The notes: generated by a model from the letters alone, not told the origin. A DNA stretch of 32,000 nucleotides from Promethearchaeum syntrophicum (GCF_008000775.2 NZ_CP042905.2:3420001-3452000), one strand, 5' to 3'; shown: positions 8,832-31,057, numbered from the stretch's first letter. Numbers and translations: made by a program.

Positions 8832-8880
8832 AAAGGAGTTTATATATTTCGATAAAAATTATCAAACAATTACTTCTTAG
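8832..8880. promoter_or_regulatory. Compact divergent promoter region between the VWA gene and the AAA_5 ATPase gene.
   Basis: The spacer is 49 bp. It contains tttatatattt (8839..8849) and gataaaaattatc (8851..8863; GATAA-N3-TTATC inverted repeat). Spacing to ATG 8816 on the minus strand and GTG 8881 on the plus strand fits TATA boxes ~24-28 nt upstream of leaderless starts. This is based on pattern only. Confidence 0.3.
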
Positions 8881-10152
8881 GTGATAATTATCACACTTCA
8901 ATCAGATAAATCCAAAAATAATGAGTTTAATGAGGCATATTCGGGGAAAACATCATCAAAAAAACATAACATAAAAGAAAACTCTATTGATATCCTTGAA
9001 AACAAATCCCCTACAACTCAAAAGGCTTTACCTTATAATGTTATTTACCCTAATAAAAATCAACAGATTTATTACCCAGTTCTTGAGTTTGAAGGAGAAA
9101 ATTTGGAGAAAATTAACGAATTAGAATTGATACGCTTAGCAGTTGAGAGAGATCGACTCTCTGGTTCAAAGCATGTTTCAACATTTTATTTTTTTAGCCC
9201 ACCAGGTCTAGGAAAAACAGTGTTAGGTAGTTTTTTAGCAGCATGTTATAAATGTCCATATCAAATTGTAAATTGTGTAAATTCTATGATAGATCTTGAT
9301 TTATTAGGGAGTCAAATCCTTATAGGAGAAGGAACAAAATGGCAAGATGGTCCTATTCCTTCGATTATTCGTGCAGCAAATCATCATAAAATGGCAATTT
9401 TAATTATTAATGAATTAAATGCACTAACAGTAAATGCACAGATGGGTCTTAATCCTTTATTAGATAAGCAACAAGGAGTAATACTGACCCAAAATAATAA
9501 TGAATTTGTAAATCTATCTGAGGATAGCCAACTTTTAATCATAGCAACAATGAATCCAGATGTTATGGGAATAAATGATTTACAAGCTTCCGTTCGAGAT
9601 CGTGCTTCAGCAATTATTGAAATGAGCTATCCTTCTCTTGAAAAAGAATCATGGTTAATTCAACAGCTTACAGGATTGGATCAAAAATGGGCTCTAATGT
9701 ATTGTGAAGTTATTGCAGAATGTAGGAGAGCAAAATTTATCGATAACACAGTAACAAAGGCTCCAAGTACTCGCGCTATTATTGACTGGATTAATTATTC
9801 AAAAGTTTGGGGGGCGATGTTGTCATTTAAATTGACCATAGCCAATCGCTACTGTGCAGGAGATAATGAAATGGAAAAAAAAATATTGATACGAATTGCC
9901 ACAGGAAAGGGAGTTCAAAAATGGAAAATCCCAAAAGATGAAGATAAATTTAAGGAGATAAAATATCAAGATAGATTTCATTTTCCAACTAGCCAACCAA
10001 TGAAAAAAAAGAAACCTACTGAACTTGGGAAAAAAGGCTTGACACCAAGACAGAAAAAAGAAATCAAACAGCAAAAATTAGCTCAGAAATTAAATTTAGT
10101 CCCCTTGGATAATTTCTTTGGAAAGAAAGATAAAAAGTCTGTCATTAAATAA
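8881..10152 (+). CDS. AAA+ ATPase of the AAA_5/MoxR (CbbQ/NorQ/CobS-like) class, with an N-terminal ~95-aa extension and a basic C-terminal tail.
   Basis: Walker A is SPPGLGKT (9196..9219). The Walker B position reads IINELN, with Asn-Glu instead of Asp-Glu (9409..9414). Sensor-1 is IIATMNP, followed by SVRDRASAI. The GTG start is forced: an in-frame TAG immediately precedes it and there is no in-frame ATG before the P-loop. Confidence 0.8.
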   Translation: MIIITLQSDKSKNNEFNEAYSGKTSSKKHNIKENSIDILENKSPTTQKALPYNVIYPNKNQQIYYPVLEFEGENLEKINELELIRLAVERDRLSGSKHVSTFYFFSPPGLGKTVLGSFLAACYKCPYQIVNCVNSMIDLDLLGSQILIGEGTKWQDGPIPSIIRAANHHKMAILIINELNALTVNAQMGLNPLLDKQQGVILTQNNNEFVNLSEDSQLLIIATMNPDVMGINDLQASVRDRASAIIEMSYPSLEKESWLIQQLTGLDQKWALMYCEVIAECRRAKFIDNTVTKAPSTRAIIDWINYSKVWGAMLSFKLTIANRYCAGDNEMEKKILIRIATGKGVQKWKIPKDEDKFKEIKYQDRFHFPTSQPMKKKKPTELGKKGLTPRQKKEIKQQKLAQKLNLVPLDNFFGKKDKKSVIK

Positions 10153-28158: not shown

Positions 28159-28929
28159 GTGATTTCTGGATTATTAAAATTTGTTAATGGGCGAAGGATG
28201 AATAGCATGGGACTAAGAGATATAGAAGACAGAGCAAAAATGCGAGAATTAATGAAAAAAAAAGCAGCAGAATTACGCATGCATAGGCTTGAAACCGAAA
28301 CTGCGATCACAAAAATGACGAAAGAAAAATTAGCAGATATTGCCAAGAAACACGGAGTTATCCTTGCTCTAGATCCTGATATGAAAGATGTAGTTGAAGA
28401 AATCCGTAAAAAATATAATATTCCTAAAGAACGAATAATTAGAGAACAAATCACTGAAGGAGATGTTCTAAAGAGTGGAAGAAAAATCATATATAAAAAT
28501 TTAGCAATGTTCACTTACCAACGCATAATGTTGGAAAAAACTGAAACTGGGGGGTTACTTACTTTACCTGATGTCTTTGATAGGGTAAATACGGGAATTT
28601 TAAAGAATAGGATTACAATTGGCGATGTTGAAAGAGCAGTTAAGATTCTAAAAAAAGATAATGTAATCCCTGAAATTAATAGATTACCGAGTGGAGTTTT
28701 AGCCATTTCATTTTTCCCAGTTCAATATACCCAGGATCAAACTTCTATCTTAGAAATTGTGAAGAATGATGGTGTTATCAATACAGGCGATGTTTGTAAA
28801 GCTTTAAATTGGACCGTTGATCGTGCGGAAAGAGCTCTCCAGAACTTAGTAGATACGCGCGTTGCAAGGATTACAGAAACCTTTAGAACAGGTAAACAAT
28901 ATTTCTTCCCAAGTTTAAAAATAAATTGA
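28159..28929 (+). CDS. ESCRT-II EAP30-domain protein (Vps22/Vps36-like).
   Basis: By eye, the C-terminal ~130 aa align with human SNF8/VPS22. GGLLTLPDVFDRV matches GGLITLEELHQQV. DVERAVKILKK matches DLIRAIKKLKA. ILEIVKNDGVINTGDVCKALNWTVDRAERALQNLV matches VLQLAEKNGYVTVSEIKASLKWETERARQVLEHLL. QYFFPSL matches HYWLPAL. The track start is GTG 28159; ATG 28198 or 28207 is more likely. Confidence 0.85.
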   Translation: MISGLLKFVNGRRMNSMGLRDIEDRAKMRELMKKKAAELRMHRLETETAITKMTKEKLADIAKKHGVILALDPDMKDVVEEIRKKYNIPKERIIREQITEGDVLKSGRKIIYKNLAMFTYQRIMLEKTETGGLLTLPDVFDRVNTGILKNRITIGDVERAVKILKKDNVIPEINRLPSGVLAISFFPVQYTQDQTSILEIVKNDGVINTGDVCKALNWTVDRAERALQNLVDTRVARITETFRTGKQYFFPSLKIN

Positions 28930-28948
28930 GTGAAAAAAGCGATACAAT

Positions 28949-29533
28949 CTATGAAAACTTAAATTTAATACCAAATTGGTCTTTATCAATTTCAACCATA
29001 TCTGCTTTTCCTTGTTTTTCAATTTTTTTGAAAATTTCTCTGAGATCTTCAACTGGTAATGCCGCAAATTCTTGATCTGAATTTCGAATATCCGGAATCA
29101 TGATAACATCAAAAATAGCATGATCTTGAGCCCATTTCTCTATTACCGAAACCCATTCTTCAATAGATTTCCAGTAGACTCGTAATGCTTCCTTTTTCTT
29201 AATCCATTTTCCTAAATTTTTTTCAACCAAACCCTCTGCGAGTTCATTAATTGCATTTTTTCGATCAATAAATTTATTAAACGGTTTCTCAGTTAGAAGC
29301 CTTTTGAGAAAGATAATATGAAATGTCCCAACTTTCGCATAATCGAGTAGAACTTGAGACCATTCATCTCTCCAAGACATATAATCGTCTTTATTTTTCT
29401 TTTTATTTGGGACCGAATACATAAATCCATATTGAGGTAATTCAATCCATTCATGTAATTCAATTAGTTTTTCATAAGGTGATTTTTCGGCAATTAACGT
29501 TTCAGAAGCAACTTCTTCTTCTAATGCTATCAT
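28949..29533 (-). CDS. vps25: ESCRT-II Vps25-like protein (tandem winged helix).
   Basis: By eye it aligns with human VPS25. [23 protein letters not shown] matches [62 protein letters not shown] matches EFHGLDEATLLRALQALQQEHKAEIITVSDGRGVKFF. The upstream 84 codons are also open in frame (see findings). Confidence 0.85.
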
Positions 29534-29827
29534 GTCTTTTTCTATTTCTACATCACTAATTGAAATCTCAAAAACTTTTTCACCCTTTGTAGCACTTGAA
29601 ATTCCCTTATCGATCGATGACTCTAAGGTTTCTAAACCATCCTCCGATTCTTGTGTTTCAATAGAACTTAATTGCGATTCTAATTCTTCTAATCTTTTAA
29701 GCTTCTCTAATTTTTTTTGCTTATCCTTTTCTTTCTGTTTTAAGATTTCCGAATCTTTATCTCTTACTTTTTCCGCGATTTCTCTTCACCTGTCATCTGT
29801 CATCTGTGATTTTTTAATGGCAATTAC

Positions 29828-31057
29828 CTATCCGCCAAATTCTCCTCTCCATTTTTCGAATTTTTCAATTTCTGAATCCGAAACAACAGGCTTTATGTTT
29901 TCTAATACCTTAATAAAATCTTCTCGAGTAATTTTCCGTAAGGTGAAATCATTATTTGAACTTGATAATTGCCCAGAAACATCCAATTCGCGTACTGGTA
30001 ACATTACAACTTCACGACATACAGTGGCAATATCTGAACCAGAATATCCTTCAGAAATTTCCCCTAATTCTTTGAAATCGACCGTTTCATCCATCTCGAC
30101 TTCTTTAGTGCAAAGTTCAAAGATTTTAGTTCGCCCTTCCACAGTAGGAAGACCACAATATATCTTTTTTTCAAACCTCCGAAGAACAGCATTATCAATA
30201 TCCCATGGAAGATTGGTTGCACCCATTAAAGTCACCAATTTGTCACTAGAACTTTTAACTCCTTGCATTTCCTGTAGAAATTGCGTTTTAATTCTTCGTT
30301 CTCCCCCACCTTCATGACCTCCTCCTCTTTTTCCTGCAAGACTGTCAACTTCATCCATAAAAATTAAAGAAGGAGCGTCTAAACGAGCTACTTTGAATAA
30401 TGTTTTTAGTAATTTTTCTGATTCACCTAACCATTTTGAAACTAAACTAGCAGAATCGGCAGCAAAAAATTGTACTCCACATTCATTTGCAGCCGCTTTT
30501 GCTATCAAAGTTTTCCCGCAACCGGGTGGACCAAATAATAGTATACCACGCCAAGGTTTTCGTGCACCTCTGAAAAGTTCGGGATGAGACATTGGTAGAA
30601 CTACCGCCTCTCTAATTGCTTGTTTTGGGTTCTCCATTCCTGCAACGTCACCCCATGTGATAGTTGGACGTTCAGTTATAATGGTTCCTTCAATAGTTTT
30701 TCTTAATTCCTTCTCATCATCAGACATTTCTGCATCTTCTTCAGATTCTCCTGATTCTTCACCAGTTTTATCTTTCCTATTACTTTTATTGGGAACCCGA
30801 CCAGAAGGAACTTTGAGTTTCTTATTTTTAAGTTGAGTTAGCATATCTGCACGTTTAAAGTACTGAAGGGCTTTTTCTTGAGCCAGTTTTTTCAATTTGG
30901 TGTTTTTACAGAATTTAGCAAATTCATTGAGTGTCTCGGTGGCATTTAAATATTTATCAGCCGCTTCATCAAATTGTTTTTGCTTATCAAGTTCAATTGC
31001 TTCATTAGCTAGTTTTATCGCAGCATTAAAGATTTTGTTATCAGAACTCATTTCCAA
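29828..31057 (-). CDS. vps4: Vps4 / CdvC-type AAA+ ATPase (MIT domain + AAA+ + C-terminal helix).
   Basis: The N-terminal MIT-like three-helix region reads AIKLANEAIELDKQKQFDEAADKYLNA...ALQYFKRADML. An acidic linker follows. The conserved stretch is TWGDVAGME..KQAIREAVVLP...PELF.G.RKPWRGILLFGPPGCGKT (Walker A). Walker B is IFMDEVDS, sensor-1 is MGATNLPWDID and the Arg finger is LRRF. Confidence 0.95.
   Translation of the reverse strand: MEMSSDNKIFNAAIKLANEAIELDKQKQFDEAADKYLNATETLNEFAKFCKNTKLKKLAQEKALQYFKRADMLTQLKNKKLKVPSGRVPNKSNRKDKTGEESGESEEDAEMSDDEKELRKTIEGTIITERPTITWGDVAGMENPKQAIREAVVLPMSHPELFRGARKPWRGILLFGPPGCGKTLIAKAAANECGVQFFAADSASLVSKWLGESEKLLKTLFKVARLDAPSLIFMDEVDSLAGKRGGGHEGGGERRIKTQFLQEMQGVKSSSDKLVTLMGATNLPWDIDNAVLRRFEKKIYCGLPTVEGRTKIFELCTKEVEMDETVDFKELGEISEGYSGSDIATVCREVVMLPVRELDVSGQLSSSNNDFTLRKITREDFIKVLENIKPVVSDSEIEKFEKWRGEFGG

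Follow-up and report, generated by a model that had tools for sequence, protein, structure and literature searches.

A conserved N-terminal region of Vps25 without a canonical start codon in the genus Promethearchaeum, and a near-cognate AUC as its proposed initiation codon

We analyzed a 32,000-nucleotide stretch of the Promethearchaeum syntrophicum genome (GCF_008000775.2 NZ_CP042905.2:3420001-3452000), referred to here as the window, with attention to the junction between the genes for Vps4 and Vps25. Vps4 and a gene for an EAP30 (Vps22/36-like) protein adjoin Vps25 both in the window and in relatives, an association that follows the pattern described in PMC9192718. The parts of the locus are as follows.

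29828 to 31057, minus strand: Vps4 (MIT, AAA and Vps4_C, assigned by domains), the upstream cistron, lying upstream of Vps25 in related loci too
29792 to 29827, minus strand: variable non-coding spacer from the Vps4 stop to the Shine-Dalgarno (SD) motif, holding cagatga x2.4 and a window-specific ATG at 29803-29801
29786 to 29791, minus strand: AGGTGA, an SD-like core, containing the in-frame TGA at 29788-29786 and an out-of-frame GTG at 29789-29787
29780 to 29785, minus strand: AGAGAA, the spacer from SD-like core to proposed start, 6 nt in 10 lineages and 5 nt in one (L001)
29777 to 29779, minus strand: ATC, the proposed initiation codon, aligned with the ATG start of homologues
29534 to 29776, minus strand: conserved Vps25 N-terminal region, 81 codons after the proposed start, charged and helical (alignment, dN/dS, AF2)
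28949 to 29533, minus strand: annotated short Vps25, 194 aa, linker and tandem winged-helix core (PF05871), stop included
28159 to 28929, plus strand: EAP30 (Vps22/36-like) ESCRT-II partner gene, convergent with Vps25, a neighbor in relatives too

Vps4 ends in ..EFGG followed by a TAG stop at 29830-29828 on the minus strand, and the first canonical start in the Vps25 frame is the ATG at 29533, leaving a gap of 294 nt between the two genes. A sequence-only reading of this DNA had proposed that the gap does not look intergenic, and all of its coordinates were confirmed: the Vps25 frame is open over 84 codons (29785-29534, minus strand), while the two remaining sense frames of the same stretch hold 10 and 9 stops. 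A frame scan likewise bore out that no in-frame ATG, GTG or TTG occurs within the 84 codons. The run had been called unexpectedly long, and only 4 of 20,000 shuffles of the region were free of stops, with P of about 3e-4 to 1e-3 from base composition. Among the ~22 long open frames in the window, only that of Vps25 extends more than 16 codons ahead of its first canonical start. Immediately upstream and in frame, the sequence reads ATG (29803-29801) ACA GAT GAC AGG TGA (29788-29786), and the 7-nt cagatga stands in tandem at 29806-29793 (x2.4 when counted over 29806-29790), again as first reported. On the opposite strand, an antisense open frame of 279 codons (29478-30317, plus strand) faces the Vps25 N-terminal region and the Vps4 3' end, and frame 1 opposite the 84-codon stretch has 0 stops. 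The frame at 29478-30317 looks like a shadow ORF of purine-rich coding sequence rather than a gene.

Searching with the extended 278-aa translation as query gave 48 protein homologues, most of them 280-317 aa long with query coverage of ~100%, whose N-termini read M-x-x-IAE[KQ]..R.K or MAEKQR. The N-terminus of the closest homologue in this search (P0001) resembles that of the window. Across ~135 distinct related Asgard loci, Vps25 is ~280-320 aa long, and in every one of them a single open frame, as a rule with one ATG at its head, covers both extension and core. Conserved blocks in the aligned extension comprise an N-terminal motif, a KLxKLxKLxxL helix, the segment L..LE..I...SATKGE and an EL..LE.E helix that precedes the winged-helix core; the long-form N-terminal motif M-(A)-E-[KR]-Q-R.., the KLxKLxxL helix and the L..LE..I...SATKGE segment are all present, in one frame with the core. 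Vps25 matches PF05871 at 39.3 bits against a gathering cut-off of 27 (E = 9e-10), and its sequence matches to solved structures include 7PB9 (Odin Vps25, 7e-21) and 3CUQ_C (human VPS25). In the AF2 model, block-mean pLDDT is ~82-95 from residue ~100 onward, with a winged-helix-type order of helices and strands and a tandem winged-helix arrangement; the extension is modeled as three helices (residues 10-45, 51-65 and 78-93) at a pLDDT of 50-72.

These comparisons identify the 84 codons as the N-terminal region of Vps25, conserved across Asgard archaea and contiguous with the rest of its coding sequence. The earlier proposal that the gap is coding and part of Vps25 is thus upheld, with homologues that span the extension in a single frame under purifying selection (see below). 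An alignment of Vps25 orthologues with their upstream regions had been suggested as a check, and it shows the N-terminal region to be conserved across Asgard loci. Protein-level conservation therefore does not begin at the equivalent of the annotated MIALEEE; orthologues conserve the stretch and start upstream of that Met. Charged, helical and predicted as isolated helices, the region might also be taken for a separate small coiled-coil ESCRT accessory gene, another option of the sequence-only reading. We give this almost no weight, as the extension has neither a stop nor a start codon of its own, runs as one continuous frame into the winged-helix core in all loci, usually from a single ATG, and never occurs separately in the ~135 distinct loci.

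With the region assigned to Vps25, the question becomes where translation starts. The comparison drew on 172 related loci in all, mostly MAG or metagenome contigs, and anchoring on the conserved N-terminal motif covered 167 of them (135 distinct); anchors were set by a motif regex, and 11 loci were left unanchored. An ATG stands at the anchor in 122 distinct loci (from MAGs of Promethearchaeota, Thor-, Hermod-, Hod- and Odinarchaeota), which read ATG GAA AGA CAA AGA (MERQRE..) or ATG GCx GAA (MAEKQR..) a few nucleotides past the Vps4 stop. At the same aligned position, 12 distinct Lokiarchaeales loci, the window among them, have ATC or ATA; L168 and L169 raise the count to 14, and the junction of L170 duplicates that of L002. 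Two further candidates for ATH-anchored lineages, taken from unusually short gene calls, were rejected. L171 (P0022) has an ATG at the anchor, 5 nt past the Vps4 stop, where the gene caller took the second ATG, and L172 (P0034) has AGG at the anchor with an ATG two codons on. The L172 junction (CAYQLU010000031.1, 1489-1503) reads ..AGG GCT GAA ATG CAG AGA, with AGG at the family start and an ATT overlapping the Vps4 TAA, and may represent either a shifted N-terminus or another near-cognate start.

Outside the genus, the anchor is ATC in L. ossiferum (L010), Harpocratesius (L013), L012 and L014. In this sister group the Vps4 gene ends ..GGA GGG TGA exactly 5 nt ahead of the ATC, and an in-frame GTG overlaps the stop (a GTGA overlap). 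Two of the four sister lineages, L012 and L013, have in addition an in-frame ATG in the 6 nt between GTG and ATC (gtgATGaatATC, gtgataATGATC), which is above chance for a hexamer rich in A and T and looks like the return of a canonical start. Since a canonical start is at hand 1-3 codons upstream in the sister group, the ATC there may simply encode Ile. Across L010-14, L171 and L172, the Vps4 stop lies exactly 5 nt before the Vps25 start position, be the codon ATG, ATC or AGG, and in the sister lineages the Gly-Gly-stop at the Vps4 C-terminus (GGAGGGTGA) doubles as an SD-like sequence. The geometry of the sister-lineage junctions suggests termination-reinitiation coupling.

The Promethearchaeum clade itself comprises 11 distinct lineages: the window, L001, L089, L168, L169, L170, L002-5, L088, L006/7/9, L008 and L090. 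Its assemblies are independent, with L002-5 coming from four samples and L006/7/9 from three sources, and the MAGs nearest to the window have 86-93% amino acid identity. In 10 of the 11 lineages the junction has one layout, [A/G]GGTGA followed by a 6-nt A-rich spacer and AT[C/A] GCG GAA; in the same 10, the TGA falls in frame with Vps25 and the GTG is offset by +1, and a canonical start is absent ahead of the conserved residues. Eight lineages have AAAAAA as the spacer, while the outgroup L090 has ATAAAA and the window AGAGAA, in which two A-to-G changes are derived; in a neighbor-joining tree, the position of the window inside the clade has bootstrap values below 35%. Only L001 differs in length, with a 5-nt spacer, one A fewer, that puts the GTG in frame. 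Such tolerance of a 1-nt change in spacer length is as would be expected of non-coding sequence. GGTGA is invariant in all 11 lineages, while its flanks diverge. Farther upstream, the spacer ahead of GGTGA differs in length by ~37 nt among the clade (from a minimum in L002, L088 and L090 to a maximum in L006), and tandem duplications differ by lineage, with cagatga x2.4 in the window and tgttagc x2 and gatagca x2 in L006/L009 (L006 1700-1745). This hypervariability of the Vps4-Vps25 spacer suggests replication slippage in a tolerated non-coding stretch. In L088 (LGVD01081913.1), the Vps25 frame runs for 340 codons rather than ~276; either the usual stop is apparently absent or the contig diverges at its 3' end.

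The extension behaves as coding sequence throughout the clade. It contains 0 stops across the 11 lineages, and its only indels, of -2 and +7 codons, are multiples of 3. Nei-Gojobori dN/dS of the extension against the window is 0.05-0.11 at dS of 0.6-2.3 (dS being saturated for L090), compared with 0.04-0.06 for the winged-helix core, and the range is 0.06-0.36 for pairs made up of two start-less lineages. Between the window and its close relative L169, the values are 0.066 for the extension and 0.057 for the core, whereas neutral drift over a quarter of that path would give about 0.3. With dN/dS at the level of the core, no stops and indels in multiples of 3, the extension is coding and selected in the start-less lineages. 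The codon-level conservation that had been suggested as a further check thus takes the form of strong purifying selection.

This record bears on several ways in which the missing start might be explained. One would be a fault in sequencing or assembly, or a recent nonsense mutation, both of which the sequence-only reading had allowed for, or else a recent frameshift. Homopolymers are error-prone, and the loss of one A in L001 does place the GTG in frame. However, 10 lineages from independent assemblies all have the 6-nt spacer, that of the window is of the same length yet is not a homopolymer, and the outgroup L090 has the same layout, which makes the layout ancestral. Given its presence in 10 of 11 lineages and the strong purifying selection on the extension, we consider error or recent mutation barely credible.

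Another option, which gave that reading its headline, was a longer isoform that starts at the ATG at 29803 and passes through the TGA at 29788-29786 by read-through or recoding (Sec, Trp or suppression). The layout is real, with ATG and TGA in one frame in the window; its significance is not, as the ATG was made by the window-specific 7-nt duplication and the arrangement appears coincidental. L089, L006 and L008 have no in-frame start before the TGA, and other relatives have unrelated starts inside Vps4 upstream of it. Whether the TGA position is a sense codon in orthologues had been suggested as a check. The TGA lies upstream of the family N-terminus, which begins past it, and forms part of the conserved GGTGA. 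A SECIS or other Rfam element is also absent. We therefore think read-through very improbable.

Alternatively, only the annotated 194-aa protein might be made from the ATG at 29533, either because the upstream 82 codons were very recently silenced or because the short form is the main isoform with a trace of the long one. That ATG is the first canonical start in the frame, and 10 of 11 clade members retain a Met at its position; the 194-aa protein is able to fold and crystallize (PDB 9UYV; bioRxiv 10.1101/2025.11.01.685982), and the two spacer changes in the window are derived. Against this, the extension is intact and its dN/dS on the paths to the window equals that of the core, and the start-less layout is ancestral to the whole clade rather than specific to the window. 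There is no SD before the ATG at 29533, and its position is a Leu in L090 and many homologues. Production of the short form alone or in the main is, in our judgment, distinctly unlikely. The best explanation of the sequence data would be a gene that extends from 29779 to 28949 (276 codons, 32.4 kDa) and not the form from the ATG at 29533 (194 aa, 23.1 kDa).

The consensus AGGAGGTGATC is the archaeal SD consensus, the complement of the conserved 3' end of 16S rRNA. AGGTGA (29791-29786) lies 6 nt upstream of the ATC and is an exact 6-nt match to AGGAGGTGATC at an aligned spacing of 9, the consensus being a general archaeal one that may not be that of the host. An SD-core match of 5-6 nt at an aligned spacing of 8-9 is found in 12 of 12 distinct ATH-anchored loci, which represent about two clades and are phylogenetically non-independent, compared with ~10% of the 122 ATG-anchored loci and 5% in shuffles. 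Across the window, SD-like motifs before gene starts are rare. One, GGAGG at 1534, lies 9 nt before the ATG of a distal cistron at ~1520 with an aligned spacing equal to that of AGGTGA, and this cistron abuts the stop of the gene upstream. The other clear SD-like case is GAGGT, 6 nt ahead of the ATG at ~24917. SD motifs are rare overall in P. syntrophicum MK-D1, and in archaea they matter mainly for distal cistrons (PMC7531240).

Between the in-frame TGA and the conserved AEKVR there are three codons, AGA, GAA and ATC, and only ATC is one base from AUG. Since translation of the extension must start between the TGA and AEKVR, and ATC is the only near-cognate codon there, we propose AUC as the start. 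The initiation region folds no better than shuffles (z = 0.45), and a search of Rfam families over 28800-30000 gave no match at E <= 1. In the mechanism that we envisage, the ancestral ATG start would have become ATC or ATA in this genus, and Vps25 would presumably be co-transcribed with Vps4, which lies directly upstream on the same strand. The conserved AGGTGA core would position the ribosome 6 nt upstream of the AUC, and initiator Met-tRNA would read the AUC at 29779-29777 as Met, giving a 276-aa, 32.4-kDa product. Output from a near-cognate start would be low, so that Vps25 would be set well below Vps4. An A/T-rich box, attaaaaaat, at 29818-29809 could be a TATA element, but relatives in which the Vps4 stop directly adjoins the motif lack it.

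On balance, we favor SD-directed initiation at a near-cognate AUC as the best explanation, with somewhat better than even confidence. Non-canonical initiation, one of the options first listed for this stretch, thereby becomes the best-supported mechanism, resting on the SD-like core and on an ATC aligned with the ATG of the family. From the sequence, we infer that the AUC may actually be used, that GGTGA may act as an SD and that the weak start may tune expression, and an AUC/AUA start conserved throughout the genus is plausible. Several observations count against the proposal. In the systems tested, AUC starts translation very weakly; the genome as a whole has few SD motifs (PMC7531240), and the SD census covers only about two clades. 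The sister group has an in-frame GTG or ATG 1-3 codons upstream, which leaves its ATC possibly a plain Ile codon, and the GTG within a second AGGTGA in the window is probably the true start of the gene at 8881, which would mean that AGGTGA is not always an SD. In our literature search, we did not find a natural AUC start confirmed in an archaeon, nor AUC/AUA starts or a Vps25 start-codon problem in Asgard archaea. In E. coli, AUA, AUC and AUU initiate at 1-2% of the level of AUG and give an N-terminal Met, and infC and pcnB start with AUU (bioRxiv 10.1101/063800). In Haloferax volcanii, ~30% of putative alternative initiation sites are near-cognate (PMC7261190).

The gene at 8881 encodes a MoxR-like AAA_5 ATPase (8881-10152, plus strand) that begins AGGTGAtaattATC, the window reading ttAGGTGAtaATTATC at 8876-8895. 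Ahead of codon 135, the sole canonical start of this gene is a GTG that sits within AGGTGA. We considered the gene as a second case of an SD with an ATC start and rejected it; its homologues begin M/V-I-N-I-T-L-Q, which makes the in-frame GTG the probable true start. By this comparison, which weighs mildly against taking every AGGTGA for an SD, the motif is probably not always an SD in this genome.

A GTG within AGGTGA might likewise be asked to do the work at Vps25. Here translation would start at the GTG at 29789-29787 within AGGTGA and reach the Vps25 frame by a +1 shift within three codons, or by RNA polymerase slippage on the A-run, giving a product that begins M-K-x-IAEK. Conserved in all 11 lineages, this GTG shares the Vps25 frame in L001 and in the sister group (L010, L012-14). 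An A8 run comes after it in eight lineages and an A5 run in L090, and on such runs tRNA-Lys could re-pair in +1 or the polymerase slip; the A-rich spacer is also more conserved than neutral sites, and a GTG in AGGTGA seems to be the genuine start of the AAA_5 gene at 8881. The slippery sequence, however, is present only in relatives with A8 or A5 runs and is absent in the window, where GTG AAG AGA AAT CGC makes re-pairing of the P-site tRNA in +1 impossible before the 0-frame TAA. The window extension is nonetheless as constrained as the core (dN/dS of 0.066 and 0.057 against L169). A stimulatory structure or known recoding element is lacking (fold z = 0.45; no Rfam match), no SD lies upstream of the GTG, and a GTG start leaves unexplained the conserved G-G before it and the A after it. 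We regard a GTG start with a shift or slippage as unlikely, though it is the main rival to the AUC start, and the probable GTG start at 8881 keeps it alive. That the out-of-frame GUG in GGUGA is the real start, and that the genus enters the Vps25 frame through an obligatory recoding step (+1 shift or slippage) within the first three codons, seems to us a decidedly long shot. If it were true, it would constitute a previously undescribed initiation-proximal recoding switch on an Asgard ESCRT-II gene, one that MK-D1 would have lost or would operate by shifting without a slippery site.

Initiation at the AUC, the reading that we prefer, would have consequences of its own. The host, an Asgard archaeon, has a eukaryote-like initiation apparatus (aIF1, aIF1A, aIF2). 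If AUC or AUA is the true start, it would be a naturally conserved near-cognate start in an archaeon with eukaryote-like initiation machinery, and it may act as a device that sets stoichiometry in the Vps4-Vps25 operon.

The N-terminal region also matters for work on the protein. In eukaryotes, the N-terminus of Vps25 contacts Vps22 and Vps36. Chain A of PDB 9UYV ("ESCRT-II complex subunit", 194 aa) matches residues 85-278 of our extended translation at 100% identity. A 2025 preprint describes work with a synthesized gene for VPS25 of Ca. Prometheoarchaeum syntrophicum MK-D1, reporting an X-ray structure of the protein and its expression in HeLa cells (bioRxiv 10.1101/2025.11.01.685982), and PDB 9UYV is very probably the MK-D1 VPS25 of that preprint. 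The published work therefore probably used a truncated Vps25 that lacks the N-terminal 82 residues, which across Asgard Vps25 are conserved and subject to purifying selection. As the long form is truncated in the 194-aa construct, conclusions on Asgard ESCRT-II binding, localization and structure may miss a functional module. Similarly, gene callers shorten Vps25 across the MAGs of the genus, to 195, 225, 228 and 267 aa, the start-less layout leading them to truncate it differently in each MAG.

Parts of this locus resemble systems known elsewhere. In the E. coli genes infC and pcnB, as proposed for the window, a conserved near-cognate AUH with a third-base mismatch to AUG follows an upstream SD, and their weak initiation is believed to determine how much product is made, to which we liken the role proposed for the AUC. 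They differ in that their codon is AUU rather than AUC or AUA, that the host here is an Asgard archaeon, and that the start in the window is proposed from sequence alone; their autoregulatory logic has no known counterpart for Vps25 of the window.

The bacterial prfB gene is a case of programmed +1 frameshifting, and the -1 site of fucA1 of Sulfolobus solfataricus, a case of slippage on an A-run, is A-AAA-AAT. Most relatives of the window share with these a conserved out-of-frame start, an A-run and an SD-like element nearby. The window, by contrast, lacks both a slippery site and a stimulatory structure, and neither an in-frame stop nor a hungry codon stands at a shift site. Translational coupling of adjacent or overlapping cistrons offers a further parallel, termination-reinitiation coupling in archaea being credited to Huber et al. 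2019 as cited in PMC7531240. The sister lineages fit this arrangement, with the Vps4 stop 5 nt before the start and GGAGGGTGA in the role of SD. In the window, by contrast, the Vps4 stop lies 48 nt before the ATC and GGTGA is free-standing, so that reinitiation is less obvious.

There is also a likeness to Vps25 of other Asgard archaea (Odin, PDB 7PB9; L. ossiferum, NEF87_001465), which have the tandem winged-helix core, the Vps4 and EAP30 neighbors and the long charged N-terminal region found in the window; in Odinarchaeota, Hatano et al. deleted residues 1-58 of Vps25 to obtain crystals (PMC9192718). What sets the genus Promethearchaeum apart from these is that its N-terminal region lacks a canonical start and that the annotation begins 82 residues late. 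The N-terminal region of Asgard Vps25 and non-canonical starts are thus each of a known kind, and what is new is their coincidence in a flagship organism, with the systematic mis-annotation that it causes.
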